Assembly: GCA_951406725.2 (NCBI GenBank) | Contig: OX597816.1 | Span: 133,610,001 to 133,674,000, forward strand | DNA: 64,000 nt | Source: Octopus vulgaris | Taxonomy: Eukaryota | Direction: 5' to 3' | In this document: piece by piece, positions 12,861 to 59,400 of the stretch | Position numbering within the stretch: position 1 is the stretch's first letter | Layout: the number at the start of each line of letters is the position of its first letter | The notes under the pieces: generated by a model | Databases searched by the model: none | What the model saw: only the letters and a program-made list of their open reading frames with translations | What the model was told of the DNA's origin: nothing | Position numbers and translations under genes: made by a program

Positions 12861-15219
12861 TATATATATGTGTGTGTGTGAGTATGTGTTATTGTTTCCT
12901 TGCCTTGGCATTGCATGATGGCTTTAAATGAGTGTCACCATCATGCAAGCAGTGTTTTCCATTTCCAATCTTCTGTGCAAACATGTTTGGTCATGGGGAA
13001 ACATAACCTTACTTGGAAACAGGTGACGATTGGTGACATGAAGGACATTTAGCTGTACAAAATTCACTGCAACAAATTCCATCTGAACCATGTGAGCATG
13101 AAACAGTGGGCATTAAAATGACAATGATGGTAACGAAGATGATTATAAATACATTATGTCTAAATAAAAGATAGATTGGTTATGACTTGAGCATAACTAT
13201 CCTATCTTCTTTTGGTCATAGGTCTACCAGGTTGGAAGGGAACTAGGGCTAAACTGCAACTTATCTTGTGTAAATTACATGCAATTACATGCAATTTACA
13301 ACATGGTAAGATTTCTAGTTCACAACATGGTAATATCTCAAAGGTGACATTTCTAGCTCACAGCATGTCATATCTAATTTATAACATGGTGGCAGCTTTA
13401 GTTTACATGCTGATATTTCTATCTTGTTAATCAACTGTAACAAAAAAGCAATGTCTGTTACTTCACTATCAACAGTAATCTCATTGGAAAAGAAAGATGC
13501 GGTAAATCTTCAAATAACTGAAGAACATTTCATTGAAAAAAACAACTTAAACTCAGCATGAACTGCTAGCAGGAGATGTATACCCTTTTGCTACCATATT
13601 TCTGTTGAAATAAACAAACTTTGATTCAATTAATTTTGAAAATAATAAAGAATATATGAAAATATCCTCTTCAATATTAAGCTAGTATCTAGAACAAATT
13701 AATAGGAAATTTTGATGGAAAGTTTTAAATTACATTACTAAGACAGGAAGATTGTACCATAAATCCAAGGGCAGCCTCAGGCAAGTTTGTATCAAAATAG
13801 TTAAGGAAATACATATACTGTTTTTTACTTTTTTTAACATTAGTTGTGTCTGGCTACTTTGTTATCAATGTAATAACAGTTTCAAATTTTGCCACAAGGG
13901 CAGCAATTTTGTGGGAGGGGATGAATCGATTACATCCCCCCCACTGTTCAACTAGTACTTAATTTATCAACCCTGAAAGGATGAAAGGCAAAGTTAACCT
14001 CACGCATGCAAACACCAACTCTGATGATAGATTTTAAATTTGAAAGTTCTCACAGTATAATTCTAAAAAAAATTATCTGGCAACAAGACTAAAAAGTTGT
14101 TAGTTAATTTAATTCCTAATCTATCTGTCTATCCATCCATTCATTTATTTATCTTTCCATATGTCTATCTAAATGCTTACATCTCCCACCTAAGCCATAT
14201 TGTAAACACTATTTTGACATTTTTAAATATTTTTCAATATCTTATCATTTAATAAATATCAGTTTTTTTTCACACTTCTATATATAAATTCATATCACAA
14301 ATGGTGACAGTTATTATATGATTTGCTTTGCTGGCTCTCTGGACTGAGAAGGAAATGTATTTTTCTTTTACAGTGTTCAGTATGGGTAGAGTAGGTTAAT
14401 TGTTAGGATACTTAAATAGTAGCAATGGCACATTGTGAAAGAGGAGGAGGAGAAAGATAAACTTGATTATCAAACATTGGTGTTATTTGCTTTATTCAGT
14501 TGGTTGGTTTGACAGTTTGGTAATGGGAGTGGGGAGAAATTTGATATACAGGTGGGAGTCTATAAGTATGCCTCAATTTGTTGGAGAGTCTAGGTTTGTA
14601 AATGTGTATGTGTGTGTGTGTGTGTGTGTGAATGGGTGTTATGCATGAAAGAAATTACAAAAAAATTTTAAGCAAGTTAGAAATGGTTTAGTATCTGAGG
14701 CTATGGTAGTTGTGGTAATATGAATATTAAAAAAAAAGTGAGGAAATGCAGAAAAATGAATGAAAACAAAGAAAAAAGAAGGAAAGAGAGTAATGAAAGA
14801 AAGGGTATGGAATTTGAGTGTTTCATCATCGTTTTATATTTTTTCTTACGAATTTTAATGGGAATTATGGAAATGAATTTAGTTTAAAAGAAGTGAAGAG
14901 TACCTATATAGACATACATAGTTATAAACTTTTGCAAATTAACTTCAAACCATCCTTACCAATGATATCAATAGGTCTTACATGGGACTAACAACCAGTA
15001 CCTTTAAAGACTGATATGATAAGTAACCTACTCATTCCACAAACCTAATAATATAAAAATAAAACAGATACCACCTTGTCAAATTACATCTGGTCATTAT
15101 TAAAAAAAAAATTAATAAATGAAACATCCAGATAACAATACAGTACTATATTTAAGAGATGAGCAATTATGTACATTATTTACATTTTGATGGATTTTGT
15201 CCTCATCTTGTTTGTTGTT

Positions 15220-15265
15220 AACACAATGTTTCAGCTGATATACCTTCCAGCCTTCGTCAGGTGTC
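15220..15265 (-). ncRNA. Minimal type-I hammerhead ribozyme motif (PLE-type)
   Basis: - strand: GACAC-CTGACGA-A-GGCTG-gaaggtatat-CAGCT-GAAA-CATT-GTGTT. Both core boxes intact; stem I GACAC/GTGTT, stem II GGCTG/CAGCT. Confidence 0.7.
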
Positions 15266-15364
15266 TTGGAGAAATTTTGAACCTGGGTTCTCATTCCTAA
15301 GGTATTTTTTGATGTTATTATTATTATATCTCCTTCGAGTAAAACCACCAAATATCTCCTTTGA

Positions 15365-15727
15365 GTAAAGCCACCAATAGAAGAGAATATGACCAAGAAC
15401 TGCATGTACTTCATCCCATGCAGCTGTGGTAGGTTATACAAAGGTGAAACATGCCGCCCCCTCAAAATAAGGGTAGAGGAACATCGCAAAGCTGTGACAT
15501 GAGGAGATATTGATAAATCGGGTATAGCTGATCATGTATGGAAAAATTGGACACCATCCTGTGGGATGAAGTTAAAATAATAGACAGAACACCACTGGAA
15601 AATATGAAACCTAAAAGAAGCAGCATATATGCTAGGACACAACAACCTGCTAAGCAGACCGAGTGTAGATATGAATAGCATATGGGAACTGGTATTAAGG
15701 AAGGATAGGAGAATACTAGATTTATAA
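15365..15727 (+). pseudogene. GIY-YIG endonuclease C-terminal remnant of a Penelope-like element
   Basis: VKPPIEENMTKNCMYFIPCSCGRLYKGETCRPLKIRVEEHRKAVT*GDIDKSGIADHVW/ILWDEVKIID/HWKI*NLKEAAYML..LSRPS..MNSIWELVL...*. Has the GIY..YIG-T-R-L--R--EH signature, TGA stops at probable CGA sites and two frameshifts. Confidence 0.88.
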
Positions 15728-15757
15728 GCCCTAAAATTCATTCCATAATTGCCCACA

Positions 15758-15829
15758 GGCATATGGCATAGTGGTTAAGAGCAAGGGCTACTAACCCCAA
15801 GATTCTGAGTTCGATTCCAGGCAGTGACC
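15758..15829 (+). other. tRNA-derived Pol III promoter module (pseudo-tRNA, anticodon loop CT-ACT-AA) inside the pLTR
   Basis: 72 nt; A-box TGGCATAGTGG, B-box GAGTTCGATTCC, GGG-CTACTAA-CCC arm, imperfect acceptor stem; followed by (AAT)n. Confidence 0.75.
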
Positions 15830-15895
15830 TGAATAATAATAATAATAATAATAATAACAACATTGAAAAATACCTTAGGTTCGAAATTTCCCCAA

Positions 15896-15941
15896 GACAC
15901 CTGATGAAGGCTGGAGATTATATCAGCTGAAATATTGCGTT
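15896..15941 (+). ncRNA. Minimal hammerhead ribozyme motif (PLE-type)
   Basis: GACAC-CTGATGA-A-GGCTG-gagattatat-CAGCT-GAAA-TATT-GCGTT. Confidence 0.65.
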
Positions 15942-16324
15942 AACAACAAACAAGATGAGGAGAAAATCCATCAAAATGTAGATAATGTATCCAGATAACT
16001 TCTTTTGAAAAAAGTAGTTACAATTATCTAGAAAATCATAACTTGAAATATTAAAAACAAGTATCAGAAACTGTTAACTGAAAGTTAACTAAGAGGCAAA
16101 CACTATTTGGAGAGCTTTTTTAAGTACCAGAAAACTGTAAAAATATCTATGTAATATTGATCTCAAAGCTAGCTGTCAATCAATGCATTTTGACAGTTTT
16201 TAAATAGACTAATCTATGATTTTTCCAATAACTCACCAACTTCTTCAAAAAGCTGTTATTTTGTGGAAATTTTCATGCTTTTTATTTTTCTCTCAAAATA
16301 TCATCATATATGTGAGTGCGCATA

Positions 16325-17228: not shown

Positions 17229-17619
17229 ATATATACAATCCATCCCTAACTATTCCTACCTAATGGCTTAAACATTCTGTATTAAAACTGAGAAAAACAG
17301 AGTTTATTTAATGAGATACCAATTATAATATCACTGGAGGAGATGTATCTGCACCAAGGGATGCACCACAACCAGTTGTATAGTATCCCACCCATGTGGG
17401 ATTAATGCAGGATGTGTCGAAACAATTGTTATGAGCAATAAAAATACCTGCGTCTGCTATTTTCCATCTCCATCATTTGTTGTATACTCGGCATACTCTA
17501 AGGAATTTCTGATGTATCAACACTGTGGATGATATAAGGTAGCCATAGGCAGTGAGCATGCTTCATTGGCTTTCTACTTAGAACATATCGAACATTCAAT
17601 ATATGCATTACAAATTCAT

Positions 17620-18545
17620 ATATACACACACATATGCATATACACACACATATGCATATATACACACCCATGTATGTAAACACACACATATGCATACATA
17701 TGTATGTGTGTGAGTGTGTATATGGGCATTCAGCTGTAGAAACACAGCTAGATTAGACTGGAACCTGGTGCAGCCTTCTGGCTTCCCAGACCCTGGTCGA
17801 ACCATCCAACCCATGGTAGCATGGAAAACGGACATTAAATGATGTTGATGATATATATATACACACACATGCATATATATGTATACATAAACAAATATGC
17901 AAACATGTATATATACACATATGTATACATATACACACACATGCATACATCTGTATATACACACATACATATGCAGGCATATATATATACACACATATGC
18001 ATACATGTTTATACATGCATATTCATACATATGTATAAACATGCATGTGCATACATATGTATATACACACACATATGCATACATGTGTATATATACACAT
18101 ACACATGGATACATGTGTATATATACACATACATATGTATATATACACACACATATGCATACATATGTATATATACACACATACATATGCATACATATGT
18201 ATATATACACACATATGCATACATACATACATATACACACACATATGCATACATACATACATATACACATACATATGCATACATACATACATATACACAC
18301 ACATATGGATACATGTGTATATATACACACACATATGGATACATGTGTATATATACACATACATATGCATACATATGTATATATACACACACATATGCAT
18401 ACATATGTATATATACACACACACATATGCATACATATGTATATATACACACATATGCATACATACATACATATACACACATATGCATACATACATACAT
18501 ATACACACACATATGCATACATACATACATATACACACACATATG

Positions 18546-18628
<83 letters not shown>

Positions 18629-18630
18629 AC
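17620..18630. repeat. Compound micro/minisatellite (ACAC/ATAT/GCAT units of about 28-30 bp, then (TA)n and (GA)n) with an embedded RTE 3' tail at 17728-17850
   Basis: Unit such as acatatgcatacatatgtatatatacacac is repeated. This explains all long low-complexity ORFs here. Confidence 0.95.
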
Positions 18631-19330
18631 AGAGAGGGAGAGAGAGATTAAAGTGTTCATATATGTGTGGGTGTAAGCATGCCATTCACAATATTTGCTT
18701 TTCACTCAAGTTGTCAGTTTATGAAAATAGTTTATATTTAAAAACACAACAAAACAAAAAAAAAAGTCCTTTTTTAATGGAAATTGAAACAGAAAGAAAG
18801 TAAAAAATAGAAATGCTCAAGGGAAAGTTGCCAAATTTATAGTGTTACAAGTGGAAATTTGTTGAAACTGGCAGGAAACCAGAATAGTTATAAGACGGAT
18901 TTGAAGATTATTTAAGAGGGCATCATTCCAGGAAAAGACAGATAAGAGAATAGTGTGTGACCCAATGCACTATGGTAAGGAAGTATTTTGGGAAAATTGA
19001 TAATAAAAGTTAACAATATTTAAACTGCTGTGAAGCAACTGGATGTGAGCTATTTTACCAAAATATATATTGGAAGTACTGTTGATAAGATTGGTAAGGA
19101 AGAGTGGAGTTGGAAGAAGAGAAATGAAACTGAATGAAGTGAAAGATAGAATAGAGCTAGTAAAGTTTAGAATTGTTAACTTCATTCATACATTGAAAAT
19201 AGCATTTCCAGTCTAGAGCTTATTTTAAAATGTGTATGTGTGTTTGTAAATAGAAATAAAGAGTAAGACGTTTTGCATACAATGATAATACAACTTAAGC
19301 TTATATTTTTATAGATATATAAATAAAAAG

Positions 19331-20738: not shown

Positions 20739-22051
20739 GTTATACTTGTAGATTGCTTTAACAAACATTATGAAACAAGCCTTACTAGTCTACTCAGTCC
20801 TTAACCTAGTCCTATGCTACTTATAGGAGACTGGCTTTTTTGATGAGGTTCAATGCATATGATTAATTAATTAAGTATCTAGAAGACATTCATGGATGCA
20901 ACTGGTATGCGGCAACTATTTACTATAATATTCATTCATTCATCTCTGAAGAAATTTCACTACAAAAAGAAACAAAAGGAATGAAGGGGGAAAAAAGGAG
21001 AAAGAAAGAATGAATGAATGAAAGAAAGTTAGCTTTCTGCATGCTAGGGGAAAATGTTTTGTCAATGGAATTCAACCTGAAAATTTTATCACAGGTCAGT
21101 TCAGTCAGAGATAATGTGAGTTAAACAATAATAGGAAGAATTTGAACAAATGAAGACACCTCTACAGGATTCTTCCATCCTTTAGAAATAATGGCCAAAT
21201 TTCCTTTACATTACACTGTTCTCTTAAAAAAAGAAAAGGCACATTGAATCATGTAGTTCTCAATACAATACATCTGAAACATAGATGTAATGGTTATATG
21301 ACTGTCTTTGATCTTAAGTCTGATGGATAGCAGTAAACCAGCAGCTAAACAGCTGTAATAACAAATGGAATTCATCATCATCAACATTTTAAAAATCCTG
21401 AGGTCAACTTTATCTTTTATCTTTTCATCAATAAAAAAAAAAGTACCAATTCAGATAGGTTGGTTAGCAGAACAATAAGAAGATCAGATCAAGTGCATTA
21501 TGGTATTTGATCCAGTTCAATGTTCTGAGTTCAAATCTTGCCAGAGACTACTTTAGTGCTAGACTTAATCCATTGGCCTTTTTCACATCAACACATGGGC
21601 AGGTCTCCAATTTGCAGATACCCTCCTCCCTGCCTCACTTCCACCAATCCCAGAAGGGCCCTGTAAAAAAGCCAGAGGTACTGCATTCCATCTGAACTGA
21701 AAGAAAACAAAACAACAACAAAAAGACACCATTTTATCCCCATCCCCACTTCCCCAGTATCAGACAAGGAAATTCAGTTTGGGTTTGTAAGTTCCATATG
21801 CAACTGATTTCCGTGCCATTTCCATCAACCAAATTCTACACACAAAGTACTCTTTCAACTTGAGACTATGACAGAAAATGCTTGCCCAAGGTGCTGCACA
21901 GAATGGGATCAAACCTGAAATCACATGGTTGTGAAGCGACCTTAACTACACAAACCATACCTGCAACGTTTGATTTCGGTTGACCTTGAGCTAAACAATA
22001 ACAACAGAGACATTATCTTATGCAAAGATCTCATCCCAGAAATGCAAAATA

Positions 22052-22392
22052 GAAGGCACATGGTTCAATGGTTAGAGTGTTGGGCTCACAATCATGAGGT
22101 AGTGAGTTTGATTCCCAGACTGGGATGTGTTGTGTACTTGAGCAAGACACTTTATTTCATGTTGCTCCAGTTCACTCATCTATAGAAATGAGTAGTAACA
22201 TCACCGGTGCCAAGCAGTATCGCTTTTTGCTTTTCACTTGGACAACATCAGTGGTGTGGAGAGGGGAGGCTGGTACGCAAGTGCAACTGCTGGTCTTCCA
22301 TAAACAACCCTGCCCTGACTTGTGCCTTGGAGGGGATCTTTCTAGGTGCAATCCCACAGTCATTCATGACTGAAGGGGGTCTTTACTTCTTT
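22052..22392 (+). mobile_element. tRNA-derived SINE of a third family
   Basis: A-box tggttcaatgg, B-box gagtttgattcc, cttgagcaagacacttt core, tail ending gggggtctttacttcttt. Confidence 0.75.
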
Positions 22393-23099
22393 AATGTAAA
22401 ATGATAAAACTCAATTGTTACAGCATATCATCATTGTTTACAACAGTATTTTTGTCATCACTGTCATTGCGTTAGCATCTACTTTTCCATTTTTGCATGA
22501 GTCAAAGTTTACTGAGGTAGATGTTCTATTGCCAGATGCCTTTCATGTCACTAGCCCCCATGTTTCCAAGCAACGTAATATTTCCCCATCACCAGATGTG
22601 TTTTCATAGAATACTGGAAATGAATGACAGTGACAACTAATTACAACTATCATGTAATGTCAGGACAAGGAGACACAAACATACAAATACTCATTTGTAC
22701 AAATAAACATAATGAGTTTCTTTCAGTTTCCATCTATCAAATTCAATCACAAGGCTTTGACCAACCGGGGGGCTATAGTAGAAGACACTTGCTCAAAGTG
22801 TCATGCACGAAGACTGAACCTGAAACAATGTGCTTAGGAAGCAAACTTCTTCACCACACAGCCACGCCTGCAACTATAACATTTTAAATAAGTTATGTGG
22901 TGAACAGACGCCCTCTATTATCATGGTTAGAACTGAGTCTTTGTCTTAGGTACATACAATATAGAACATATGATTGAGTCCTGGATTAAATTGCCTTACA
23001 ATAGTTACTTACACTCCTCTCCCTTCTGATTTCAATGGTGTTGACAGATTAAATACCAGTCATATACTTGAGTTCATTCAGTCAACTAGAAATGTGAAA

Positions 23100-24213
23100 C
23101 CTTGAGCCAATATGAGAAATCAGTTGGCTACTGCTATCTCTAGCAGTTGAGAGTTCATCACTGATGGGACCAAGGAAGATCGAAATAATATCTAGTGATC
23201 TTGGTGCTGGAGGTTGAGGGTTTATCTCCCCACTGGCTATATAAACAAGAATGCCTTTTGCACCAAGAGCCAATATGAGTTTCTCTCATGGTATCTACTG
23301 CAATATAGTTCACTCTAACAGAAGATCCATGTTTAAGTGGGGATAAATATTACCACTTGGTATTAATACTGCCTTTGTTGCTAATATATATGTTTTAACA
23401 TGCTCCTGTTCTGGTACTGTTTTTCTATATATCACTGGTGGAGAGATGAGTTGTTGCTACCTCTGGCGGTTGAATGTCCATCAGTGATGTGATCAATGAA
23501 GGTCAAAATCATATGATCTGGTGGTCTCAGCACCAGAGATAGCAGTGATTTATCTCTCTGTTAACAATATAAAAAAAAGTACGTTTTGCACCAAAAGCCA
23601 ATATGAGATTTTCTCTCCGGGTATCTACTGTAGTATAGTTTACATTATTTACATTTGACAGATATTTATCCTCATCTTGTTTTGGCTGATATACCCTCCA
23701 GCCTTCATCCGGTGTCTTGGAGAAATTCGAACCTGGGTTCTCATTCCTAAGGTATTTTTCGATGTTATTATTATTATTCAGGTCACTGCCTGGAATATAA
23801 CTCGGAATCTTGGAGTTAGTAGCCTATGCTCTTAACCACTACGCCACGGGCATATGGCATAGTGGTTAAGAGTGCGGGCTACTAACCCCAATATTCTGAG
23901 TTCGATTCCAGGCAGTGACTTGAACAGCAACAACAACAGCAGCAGCAGCAGCTGAAAATTACCTTAGGAATGAGAATCCAGGTTCGAAATTTCCCCCAAG
24001 ATACCTGATGAAGGCTGGAGAGTATATCAGCCAAAATGTTGTGTTAACAACAAATAAGACGAGGACAAATATCCGTCAAATGTAAATAATGTACATAATT
24101 CCTTATCTCTTAAATATAGAACTGTAGTATAGTTTATTCAAGAAGAACATCTATGTTTAAGTGAGGATAAATATTACCTCTCAGTATTATATCTGCTTCT
24201 GTCGCTAATATAT
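23100..24213. repeat. Old tandem direct duplication of about 300 bp (copy 1 about 23100-23390; copy 2 about 23460-24213, interrupted by the palindromic insertion)
   Basis: ttttgcaccaagagccaatatgag..ggtatctactgcaatatagtt|cactctaac..atgtttaagtggggataaatattacc aligns with ttttgcaccaaaagccaatatgag..ggtatctactgtagtatagttta[insert]ttcaag..atgtttaagtgaggataaatattacc. Confidence 0.85.
23643..24120. mobile_element. Non-coding palindromic (head-to-head) tRNA-hammerhead pLTR insertion with 16-bp TSD
   Basis: Arms 23643-23846 (-) and 23849-24120 (+) are each homologous to 15758-15988. TSD ACTGTAGTATAGTTTA at 23627-23642 and 24121-24136. Pseudo-tRNA 23849-23920; hammerhead core CTGATGA at 24005 with GAAA mutated to AAAA. 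Confidence 0.9.
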
Positions 24214-24551
24214 ACTATTATATTTGTTAAGGAGTTAAACTAAGACACAGATATATTTGCTTCTAAAAAAACAAAAAGGTACAAAAGCAAAAATAACAAG
24301 AAAACAGTTGACAATCAGACATTTTCCCATTGGCATTACAATCAATAATCTTTTTAAATCATTAACATGCAGATGTGGTTGTGTGGCTAAGAAGCTTGCT
24401 CCCCAACCATGTGGTCTTTAGTTCAGTTCCACTGCATAGCTTCAGGTTGACCAAAGCCTTATGAGTGAATTTGGTAGACAGAAACTGAAAGAAGCCCATG
24501 GTATACATACATATATACACACACCACACAGATGTGTGTGTGTGTGTGTGT

Positions 24552-24584
<33 letters not shown>

Positions 24585-24942
24585 AACGTGTGAACATGTG
24601 TGTCTGTCCCACACCACTTCTTGGCAACTGGTGTTAGTTTAAGTACTCTGCAACTTAGCAGTTTGGTACAATGTATCAAGCTTAAAAGAAAAGTACTGGG
24701 GTCAATTTGTTTGACTTAACCCTTCAAGGCAGTGCCTCAGCATGACTGCAGTCCAATGACTGAAACAAGTATATGATATAAATGACATAAATATATATAT
24801 GAATAATTAAAAAATCATAAGCAATAAACATTCACAATCAAAATGCATCAAAGGTAGATTTTGTATAAACTTATATTACGAACATTTTGTCTCATACCAA
24901 ATATAGGAAAGAAAATCTTTAAAAAACTTTTCTACATACAAT

Positions 24943-24948
24943 TTTATT
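24943..24948 (-). terminator. Candidate polyadenylation signal of the ACK gene (3'UTR about 1.7 kb)
   Basis: AATAAA on - strand followed by T/GT-rich sequence. Other AATAAA hexamers exist (e.g. about 25673), so the site is not proven. Confidence 0.35.
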
Positions 24949-25591
24949 GTCGCTGTTATTATTATTAATATTATCATTTATTATTCTTGTTAATGTACAA
25001 TTTATCTGAAATACCTTCCTCTCCAGCTGGAGACTGCGGCTGGGCGGTAGGGAAAGAAAGAATAGGGATTGGACAATTCACATCTCAGATTACTAAGTTA
25101 AGGTTTGTGATGAACTTCCCAGAAATTTACAGTTTTCAGCTTTTTTTTTTTGTAAAGGGGATTGAGATTCTTAAAAGATAAATAAACTGAACACACATTC
25201 ACACACAAGTGGATGTGTGTGTATGCATAGGGGAAAAAAACTAACTATAAATAGATGTGTTTGTGTGTCTATGTGTAAATATATACATTCATACACAAAC
25301 TTACACACACATACATACACACAGACACACATAAAATCAATTTTGGTCAGGTTAATACATTTATATATGGCTACTATCAACAATAAACAACATACAAGCT
25401 TTCTATCCTTAACAGTAGCACATTGTCTGTTGGGTATTTTTTTCTAATATGTCTAAAATATTTCTAGTTATCTTAATCATAGGCTCTAACCAGAGTATGG
25501 GGAATAATGCTATAGTCTCCCATTTGCTTCAGTTTCATAAGAAATAGCCCCTTAATGCCCATTCACAATATTCTTCAAATATATATGTATG

Positions 25592-56400: not shown

Positions 56401-59400
56401 ATTTTCCACACACAGGCATGAATGTACGCACAAATTCTTACTGTTTGGACACTTAGTCAGCCTCCATAATTTGATGACAAACACCTTTCTGTCACTTCTC
56501 ATCATTCTATACACTGTTGAAGTCTCACTGATGGTAATGTTGATAGTGATGATAGTGAGGAGGATGAGAGTGATGATGGTGATGAAGCAGGAGTGTTTTA
56601 AAGTGAAATGAACAGTCCACAGTTTGTGTATTGTGAGTGAGTGAATTATAGCAAATAGGTAAGGTTTCATGTAAAGGGAAAAGAACAAGACAAAGTTGGG
56701 TTAAAGCACACCAACACACAGAACATACTACCTTTTTCAGGGTATTGATGCCATAATGTAGAAAATCTATGGGTTCACACTGAAAAAAGATAAAGAAGTT
56801 TGTCCCCCTTTCAGAAAAGCTAATAATAAAATCCATACTAATTCCTCTGTGGTGAAAAGCCTCAAATAAAATTTATATTCCAGATTTTAGCATGAAATGA
56901 ACAGCATTTAGTATTTATTAACAGAAAAAGCTTTTTATTTTGATATATAAACAATGTATATATTACAGTTGCCAATCAATTATATTCATCAAAGACATAA
57001 CATTCTAGTTGAATGACATGGGCAGAATAAAGGTTATAGCAATTTGAAAAAAGGTCATACACAAATCCACTTTTGTTTATTTTTTAATACAAAATTGCTG
57101 AAAACATTATGAATTGCTAAGAAGGATCAATCAACTTTATATCATGCTGTAAATATCATTCTGTCATGGCCTCTAAATGAGGGCTAAGTTATTCAGTTTA
57201 AAATCAGGAGATAAAACTGTTTCCAGTCACTGAATATCATTATAAAGAAGCAGAAATGGAGGAAGACAACTAGTCTTCACATATTTTTGTTTTTGTTCAG
57301 AGCTCTTCAGCAACACGGACAAACCTACAGACATTAACCCTTTCATCAAAAGAAACAAAACAAGTTTTATATCCAAATTAATATGGATGCCTATAAAGAT
57401 TACCTGTTCATATTAATACTGCTTCTGTCACTAATAATTAATTTAAGATAAAGTTTTATCCTTTAACACTTACACTATTGTAAATTTGTAAATGGAATAA
57501 GTAATCTGTTCCTGGTGGTGAACTGGATTAAAGCTTCACTTCATGGAATGAGCTTATGATATGAATTAGAGCAAAAGCTGGATAATGAGAGATTAAAGGG
57601 TCTTGGAGTTAAAAAGGTTGTAGGGACTAGGAAACACTTTATTCTCAACACAAACTCAAATGCCTTAGATGCAGCTTGATGGAAAAAAAATGTTTAACCT
57701 GAAGGTGAATAATTTATCTATTTTGGGGAAACTAGAAATTAGAAAAATTAGCATAAAGTTTGTTTTGCTTTCTAATGGGAATACAGGAAGAGGTAATTAC
57801 AAAGTAGTTTCAGAGATTTTAGGGTTATGTAAAGGAAAATAAAATTTCAATGATTTCAAAATGCAGGGATAAGTTGAGTGTGTTGTGAAGAGGAGTTCTT
57901 TATGATAGTAAGTAAATCAGACAAGTACATTTTGAAGTCCTTCCCTAACATATGTTTAACACATTAAAACATGAGGTGACTCAATTCATAGATTTTCGTT
58001 GCTTTTATATAAAATTAGCTCCTCTACTTTTAAGTTGATAAAATGAAATATTTATCAGACAGGTAACAAAAAAAAAATCAAAAATAAAAATAAAAATCTA
58101 AAACTATAACAAACTGAGTATGTGATCAAATACTAAATAGCTAAATGCTAAAAGAGTTATAATTTACAGTTACTTTGATGGGGAGGTTTTTTGAGTTTGT
58201 CTTTTTTACTTGGTTGATATGAACAAGAACATTCTGCAAAGCCTTCACACAAATTACTTATGCTCATTTGTTCAATAAGTTACCAGGTATTTATTTGTAT
58301 AGTTGGCCAAGCAGACTTGTTGAATTCATGCAAATATGCAAAAATAGATAAGTGAAATGATAAAAATTATAAGAGGAAGATGTAGGAAAGCAAAAGATAA
58401 GTTCTATGTAAATGTAAGTGGCAAGTTAAATATAGGCAGATTAGCATATTATTATTATTATTATTATAAGGGTGGTGGAGTGACGGAAATGGCAGGGTGC
58501 CAGAGTAAATACCTTGCAGTATTTACGTATGTCTTTTACATACTGAGTTCAAATCCTGCTTCCTTTCATCCTTCTGAGATTGATAGAATAAATATCATGT
58601 CAAGTACTGGGACTAGTTAAATAGACTATACCCTCCCCACAAATTTGTGGCCTTATGCCAAGGTTAGAAATCATTATAATAATGAGTAGCATGGTTGTGT
58701 CAATGAAGAATGAGTCTTTGGATTTACTTGTGCTATATTCTTAGCAATAATATGTTTGATTCTCACTCCTCTGTAGGCCATCCTTTAATTGCAGTTATGG
58801 CTTGTTAGATAAAAACATTTTTTAAACCAGAATATGAAGAAACTGTCCAATGGCAAAACATTAACCTCAACTAAAAATGTAAAAACCTTAGTAGACAAAA
58901 TTACTGTTAAAATACAGCAACATTGGTTTTAGATTATCTTCCAATTCAATCTTAATGTAGGTAATTTCAGAAAAATGTAAGATCCCTCTTTTCCCAAATT
59001 TTCTTCAGTTACTTAATCCTGGTTATTTACAAACAAAATATACTGGCCTTAATTCCATACTGTTAACTTACCTCAACTTATTCACAAACTTCATTCTGTC
59101 TTTGCAAAGTAACTGTTTCTACTACTCATCTTTCTGTACACTCAATTTCGAACAGTTGGCTATCAGCAGCTCAAAGCTGTCCAAACTGTTTCTAATAAAT
59201 TTATAACTAACTCAGTTTCACCTACAATTTGTTGCCCTTATAAAAAACATTCACCCTGAAATTATCAATACATATATAAAATGTCTAGACAGCACTTGTA
59301 AATGTGACAATCATACCATTTCTATTCTAAACAGAGAGGTACATAGTAACATTCATTTTCTCAATGAGAAAGAGTGTGTATTTACATACTAACCTATATC

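Follow-up and report, generated by a model that had tools for sequence, protein, structure and literature searches.

A head-to-head pair of solo pLTRs in Octopus vulgaris from an abundant Penelope-type element whose RNA likely starts at a tRNA-derived promoter

Among the described systems closest to the insert reported here are the EN+ PLEs Pen2, Pen2a and Pen3a of the rotifer Adineta vaga, whose pLTRs likewise occur as head-to-head inverted pairs with a palindrome at the junction and at the pLTR 5'-end (PMC3846280). These rotifer elements also share with the octopus family a one-sided tail (31 bp in the rotifer), a short duplication (8-10 bp), first codons that lie within the pLTR, and solo pLTRs (PMC3846280). 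The Poseidon element PAc of the green anole encodes an RT with a C-terminal GIY-YIG domain, for which the octopus element has a candidate counterpart, and resembles the octopus element in having a hammerhead that overlaps the ORF start; in PAc the tail is defined by two internal priming sites, and both target strands are cut and extended, as we propose for the octopus family (PMC11167929). Minimal type I hammerheads with the same anatomy as in the octopus family, i.e. a short helix I, a palindromic loop 3 and a long helix II in which a 5' base is unpaired, have been described from animal pLTRs, and motifs paired on opposite strands 100-700 bp apart have been reported (PMC4209133). The steps of PLE insertion have been called undefined (PMC8557442). 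We analysed a 510-nt insert in a 64,000-nt stretch of the O. vulgaris genome (contig OX597816.1, positions 133,610,001 to 133,674,000; hereafter the window). With a rough probability of 0.62, we read it as a head-to-head solo pLTR pair of an abundant autonomous Penelope-type element, likely copied from the element's own RNA, which was likely started at a tRNA-derived Pol III promoter. The locus is ordinary and its form of insertion is known; what is new in the family is a pLTR that starts with a putative tRNA-derived promoter. A literature search, with Repbase, supplements and subscription papers beyond its reach, showed no tRNA-headed or Pol III-driven PLE among the matches listed, and the accessible parts of papers on octopus repeats list SINE and Penelope classes without such a structure, although their supplements or repeat libraries may hold the family (PMC13282606, PMC8967140).

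The insert consists of two modules, each with a tRNA-like head, a spacer and a hammerhead, joined head to head with an overlap of 3 nt (Table 1). This is the arrangement given in a preliminary description made from the sequence, which had also correctly placed both arm starts near the tRNA 5'-end (the right arm begins 4 nt ahead of the tRNA-like +1 at 23848 and the left arm at +8) and had found no GIY-YIG sequence in the insert. The arms are identical at 178 of 206 aligned columns, with gaps of 13 nt, 2 nt and 17 nt besides. Folding of the whole 510-nt insert with its flanking duplication yielded the expected long hairpin as a single structure (-292.6 kcal/mol, z -28.6, equalled by 0 of 100 shuffles), and single heads and hammerheads folded alone (four stretches) gave no signal above shuffles. 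The hammerheads announced for both arms are present, but both cores are mutated: each carries GAAA -> AAAA, and the left one also carries CUGAUGA -> CGGAUGA and has lost its cleavage site, so that both are predicted to be inactive. The right hammerhead lies within the beginning of the family ORF frame. The divergent back-to-back Pol III promoters of the preliminary description are likewise recognizable as two heads with A and B boxes, but the B box on the left is mutated. Neither ARAGORN nor Rfam called a tRNA or a hammerhead at the insert in the window; the identities of both rest on motif anatomy and on comparison with tRNA-Arg. The spacers differ between the arms as described, but (AAT)n/(AAC)n spacers occur family-wide, with (AAT)n(AAC) as the family majority, and 4 of the 58 spacers read bear AGC. 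RNA editing as the source of the difference was rejected, since simple microsatellite turnover fits. With the spacer excluded, the two arms have 5 and 9 non-CpG differences from the family majority, and the decay of this copy since insertion appears in line with neutrality.

Table 1. Features of the insert and related features in the window (positions are those of the window; family positions count from the tRNA-like +1)
Feature	Position	Strand	Remarks	Basis
Second family copy in the window	15138..15989	.	Inverted partial pLTR, broken GIY-YIG-like region and pLTR; 11-bp duplication	
Older duplicate of the host repeat	23132..23390	+	76% identical; empty site 23297-23312	
Left TSD copy	23627..23642	+	Last 2-4 nt common to the 3'-end of the left arm	
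Left arm, inverted pLTR, without tail	23641..23846	-	Family positions +8 to about +241	
Left hammerhead remnant	23680..23717	-	Mutated core, cleavage site deleted	Sequence and alignment
Left tRNA-like head	23792..23846	-	A box intact, B box mutated	Sequence
Head-to-head junction	23844..23846	.	3-nt microhomology	
Right arm, direct pLTR	23844..24126	+	Family positions -3 to +274	
Right tRNA-like head	23848..23921	+	A box 23855-23865, B box 23898-23909	
Spacer microsatellite (AAC/AGC)n	23922..23955	+	Right arm	
Right minimal type I hammerhead	24000..24045	+	GAAA -> AAAA	Sequence; anatomy as in PMC4209133
PLE tail, about 30 nt	24094..24124	+	Right arm only	
Right TSD copy	24121..24136	+	First 4-6 nt common to the tail end	

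Of the copies anchored on the GIY-YIG-like sequence, 26 of 30 in one set and 27 of 30 in a second, partly overlapping set continued into the module. By stepping upstream from copies to the majority sequence, we reconstructed a unit of 2,655 nt with one ORF of 835 aa, which starts at +119, inside the pLTR, and stops 32 nt ahead of the next head. As these copies run into the module and the unit holds an RT-type ORF, the module is the pLTR of an autonomous Penelope-type element, probably of the EN+ kind. The majority ORF contains a YVDD motif, and relatives with 52-66% identity carry RVT_1, those with 54-66% identity passing the cut-off. Pfam and PDB searches with fragments of the element, endonuclease included, gave no match; we take its putative C-terminal endonuclease to be GIY-YIG-like, having assigned it by eye from the motif pattern. 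The Penelope/Poseidon-type clade name given to the family rests on architecture. A pLTR stands at both ends of L155 and of other copies, where it overlaps the ORF start; in full copies, the tail sequence runs on into the ORF, and in the family the pLTR 3'-ends fall into two clusters that lie a tail length of about 30 nt apart. The hammerhead core is intact in 188 of the 402 family arms that span it, and the family pLTR is predicted to carry a minimal type I hammerhead; Rfam, run on the window and on eight loci, reported no hammerhead but only hairpin or microsatellite miRNA matches below the cut-off. A control search for a second PLE family led back to the same family in all 30 of 30 matches.

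The forms of the inserts and their ends were studied in 180 loci that match one of two exact 3' motifs (4,868 and 3,866 matches genome-wide). They comprise nearly all of the 100 matches listed first for each motif, all on contig 1 and mostly in its first 72 Mb, and the sample favours less-diverged copies; de-duplication and removal of edge cases left 184 insert clusters. Among the arms reaching +20, 91 of 128 stop within -20 to +20, whereas the adjoining comparison windows contain the ends of 19 of 147 arms (downstream; P 1e-23) and of 6 of 37 arms (upstream; P 2e-9), and eleven other 41-nt windows those of 3-16%. This is the sharp peak at the tRNA start that the preliminary description had predicted, and not an even spread along the PLE. 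The ends are distributed over about 25 nt, and all but one in this zone (at -19) lie at -7 or downstream. A 20-mer from the head has 5,148 matches genome-wide, about six times as many as one at -31 (865), and one at -125 has 668 (match rates 0.24-0.29); the family comprises about 20,000 head arms, and about 3,500 extend upstream. Where the hammerhead is predicted to cut (+185 to +196), 13 arms have their 5'-ends, a smaller excess of about two-fold over the neighbouring positions that coincides with a local palindrome. Arm ends at +70 to +112 are partly artefacts of long spacers, and the finding that head-start arms are less diverged (4.7% vs 5.8%) is confounded by the choice of loci. Seven of 41 head matches (L335, L340, L341, L344, L345, L348 and L352) continue through (AAT)n into unrelated sequence and lack a pLTR body within 1.2 kb; they are probably broken copies, or possibly head-plus-microsatellite inserts.

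The peak as such is expected both from a SINE and from solo pLTRs, since internal priming at the 5' pLTR of a full RNA gives the same peak (PMC11167929). The copies in which the tail is joined to the ORF gave a set of 75 junctions, taken from 70 of 78 match places together with loci already in the sample. In three of these copies (L385, L416 and L423), the sequence runs unbroken from the ORF to the head start, with ends at -1, -7 and +1. In the copies with a jump, eight pLTR segments end between -5 and +14 and are joined upstream to beyond-tail ORF sequence, four of them at G(-5), and three jump segments extend past the head. The simplest reading is that the RNA would start at the head, hold the ORF and be primed internally in its 5' pLTR. 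Of the ORF-attached 5' pLTRs that reach the head, three end there, and three clear cases plus two with deletions go on upstream; thus not all templates start at the head. In L372, L401, L380 and L422, the ORF is joined straight to the head at G(-5), twice via an A-rich run, and these G(-5) joins suggest either that copying jumped to an RNA end with oligo-A or that an RNA circle was involved.

The first 74 nt of the family pLTR are 49/73 identical to genomic tRNA-Arg(TCG) (z 7.9), the best match in a comparison set of 30 genomic tRNA genes of five or six kinds; ARAGORN, applied to 29 copies, called no tRNA. The family majority has a perfect A box and a perfect B box at the correct distance from each other. 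The purine G(-5), the putative start, lies 13 nt ahead of the A box, a spacing typical of Pol III. The sense strand of the 2,655-nt unit contains no TTTT at all, with 2.9 expected in the ORF (P 0.028, synonymous shuffle), a signal that is weakened by the similar absence of G4 runs (P 0.28 in the same shuffle, 0.03-0.04 by two others). At this locus, the next T4 downstream of the right arm is at 24322. Taken together, these features make it likely that the RNA of the element is started by a predicted tRNA-Arg-derived Pol III promoter. A bolder version, which we put forward tentatively and hold to be possible but less than probable, is that a captured tRNA-Arg head replaced a Pol II promoter and that Pol III transcribes the unit from end to end, the uncapped RNA being both translated and internally primed and shedding about 20,000 SINE-like arms, so that a LINE and its own 'SINE' would come from one RNA. 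RNA polymerase III normally makes short non-coding RNAs only; if it makes the coding RNA here, the element would be a protein-coding retrotransposon driven by a tRNA promoter, a kind absent from the matches listed by the literature search, and the question of its translation arises. If true, SINE-like repeats can arise without a SINE, and annotators should be warned that such copies would be classed as tRNA-SINEs.

The sharp 5' border does not in itself need Pol III, since rotifer PLEs have palindromes together with Pol II-type motifs (PMC3846280). The insert could be a solo pLTR pair whose border stems from RNA processing, from a Pol II start or from fold-back at an imperfect hairpin (-18 to +17), with the tRNA-like head a captured relic. 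A native imperfect hairpin does sit at the head start, many junctions lie on local palindromes (e.g. 12 at +17), some ORF-attached pLTRs read past the head, and the pLTRs of other PLEs are known to have palindromes at the 5'-end and Pol II promoters inside them (PMC3846280, PMC2377424). However, the other palindromic sites yield small bumps only, the non-inverted jump junctions end at G(-5) without any fold-back, the majority sequence keeps both boxes perfect and at the correct spacing, and the unit is free of T4. We consider this reading unlikely.

The preliminary description had favoured a PLE-dependent SINE, in which short Pol III transcripts of solo copies, re-mobilized in trans, would make most head-start arms. 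The tRNA-related A/B-box head and the 5'-ends at its start agree with this proposal, head-start arms outnumber upstream-reaching arms by about 5 to 1, each solo head that is still intact could give a short transcript ending at the next T4, and pLTR sequence sufficed for trans-mobilization in a rotifer (PMC3846280). Against it, none of the 38 sites tested tells the 153 head-start arms apart, after correction, from the 108 that are linked to the ORF (best P 0.006); the main haplotypes are common to short and ORF-linked copies. The whole module belongs to the autonomous element, and the sampled copies showed no independent lineage sharing only its 3'-end. The jump segments whose origin can be traced derive from the ORF; a few same-strand pairs have spacers of another kind, which were not recognized as captured flanks. 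The minimal RNA of the anole element reaches beyond the priming sites into sequence that solo copies lack (PMC11167929), and the short derivatives that have been re-amplified in octopus retain beyond-tail sequence. With haplotypes shared and with copies pointing to head-start RNAs that continue into the ORF, the short transcript as template was given up as the favoured explanation and is judged improbable.

We return to the preferred reading, a solo pLTR pair copied from the element's own RNA. In the mechanism that we propose, transcription directed by the A and B boxes would begin about 5 nt ahead of the tRNA-like +1, and the RNA could cross the whole T4-free unit. The RT-endonuclease would cut the two target strands about 12 bp apart. 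Internal priming would take place once on each strand, in the manner shown in vitro for the anole element (PMC11167929), at two sites (+241-247 and +272-275) that lie about 30 nt from each other. The single tail per insert and the both-strand priming in vitro suggest that each target strand receives one cDNA. Priming in the 5' pLTR would meet the RNA end after about 250-280 nt, which would explain why ORF-free arms dominate. The palindrome would then arise when the two cDNA ends are joined, either through microhomology or where the RNA start forms a small hairpin; self-priming by fold-back, put forward in PMC3846280, would also fit the short perfect hairpins at the junctions.

The head-to-head pair is the usual insertion form of the family, a form already published (PMC3846280, PMC8557442): 87 of the 184 clusters are complete pairs, a lower bound, as long spacers split some. 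The tail is on exactly one arm in 83 of these 87 pairs, 69 are flanked by a duplication of at least 8 nt with no more than one mismatch (perfect in 38; the commonest length is 12 bp), and 77 are free of GIY-YIG sequence. The insert is coding-free as described, and its palindrome is ordinary for the family. Both arms reach the head, as they do here, in 19 of the 87 pairs, and on a rough estimate the locus is one of roughly a few thousand such double-head pairs. Variants are shared between the arms of one insert more often than between random pairs (8.4% vs 2.5%, above all 500 shuffles; 128 pairs), and arm-arm concordance holds at four marker sites (P <= 5e-5). These common subfamily markers indicate that both arms of an insert come from one source. 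No private variant is common to both arms of the insert at 23641-24126, and the evidence for a same-template origin therefore concerns the family and not this copy in particular.

The flanks confirm several further points of the preliminary description. The perfect 16-bp duplication is the sole exact repeat of at least 8 nt between the two searched flank stretches. As the 16-mer shares 4-6 nt with the right end of the element and 2-4 nt with its left end, the true duplicated target may be about 12 bp, matching the family mode. The uninterrupted paralogous site next door was found, with the 16-mer present once and 13/16 identical (Table 1), and it is likewise single in the dispersed paralogues L106 and L109. 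One duplication encloses both arms and only one tail is present, in agreement with a single insertion event; PLE machinery as the mobilizer is likewise supported. In DNA run X2, contigs extend across the two outer junctions without a single difference, although X2 may be the assembly's own source, and none of the DNA contigs aligned at the locus spans the whole insert. An artefact of assembly, or a pair of independent insertions into the same spot, might be suspected from the 28 differing columns of 206, the differing spacers and the want of an end-to-end contig, but is very improbable given two arms inside one duplication with a tail on one only, a form that recurs in 87 of 184 inserts, the identical arms that a foldback would make and the X2 contigs at the outer junctions (with the same proviso as to their source). 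The host sequence (23132-23642 and 24137-24214) is a dispersed repeat that is tandemly duplicated here and also occurs at 57393-57436; its copy L106 has an internal inverted match and is MITE-like.

A minus-strand tyrosine-kinase gene with a C-terminal UBA-like domain, presumably the 'ACK' gene of the preliminary description, occupies 24990-50241 of the window. RNA cover of its 3' UTR ends near 24990 and is about zero at 24865-25015, about 850 nt short of the insert, close to the 0.8 kb originally given. RNA reads on the insert bear family alleles (the libraries are unstranded), and the RNA runs, with fragmented and unstranded reads or contigs, showed no transcription attributable to the locus. 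With the left B box damaged and both ribozyme cores dead, the sequence does not indicate a function for the locus. Further tRNA-like SINE-type repeats lie at 22050-22350, 22712-22870 and 24375-24770, two of them inverted, 1.7 kb apart, around the insert. A long degenerate purine-pyrimidine microsatellite array at 17600-18700 gives rise to spurious long ORFs and miRNA-family matches. Elsewhere, L402 and L440, which lie on different contigs, form a segmental duplication with 94-96% identity across 2.8 kb. What makes the family useful is that its copies record steps of PLE insertion: two priming sites, one-source arms, a fixed RNA start and jumps within the RNA.

The word tRNA is absent from the main text of the study of animal pLTR hammerheads (PMC4209133). 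The SINE-like SM-alpha repeats of schistosomes share with the octopus pLTR a Pol III-type promoter and a type I hammerhead, but are described as tandem and non-coding, with the promoter at the 3'-end of the cleaved monomer and no linked ORF reported in the parts available (PMC6765202, PMC8490949). Animal non-LTR retrozymes are non-coding, hammerhead-bearing and derived from PLE pLTRs like the insert, but consist of tandem direct repeats with a hammerhead per unit, whereas the octopus insert is inverted (10.64898/2026.07.22.740005). A non-LTR retrozyme was rejected as an identity for the insert, which is an inverted pair with both cores mutated and not a series of tandem direct units with intact hammerheads. 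Short non-coding derivatives with beyond-tail ORF sequence do recur in the family at different sites with the same junction: a unit of +106 to +393 in L437, L438 and L439, a tandem of +107 to +343 in L433, and a deletion form common to L415 and L427. From their structure, these would be retrozyme-like offspring of the family. Penelope of Drosophila virilis resembles the octopus element in having a promoter internal to the repeat and in forming partial tandems with inverted repeats, but its promoter is TATA-less and of Pol II type, with a DPE and an intron and, in the account available, no A or B boxes (PMC2377424). PAc differs in that no tRNA-like promoter appears in the sections consulted and in that its mechanism was shown in vitro, whereas that of the octopus family is read from its copies (PMC11167929). 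The A. vaga PLEs, as far as the accessible account goes, have TATA/Inr-like motifs, no tRNA head and a low copy number, whereas in the octopus family solo pairs form the majority (PMC3846280).
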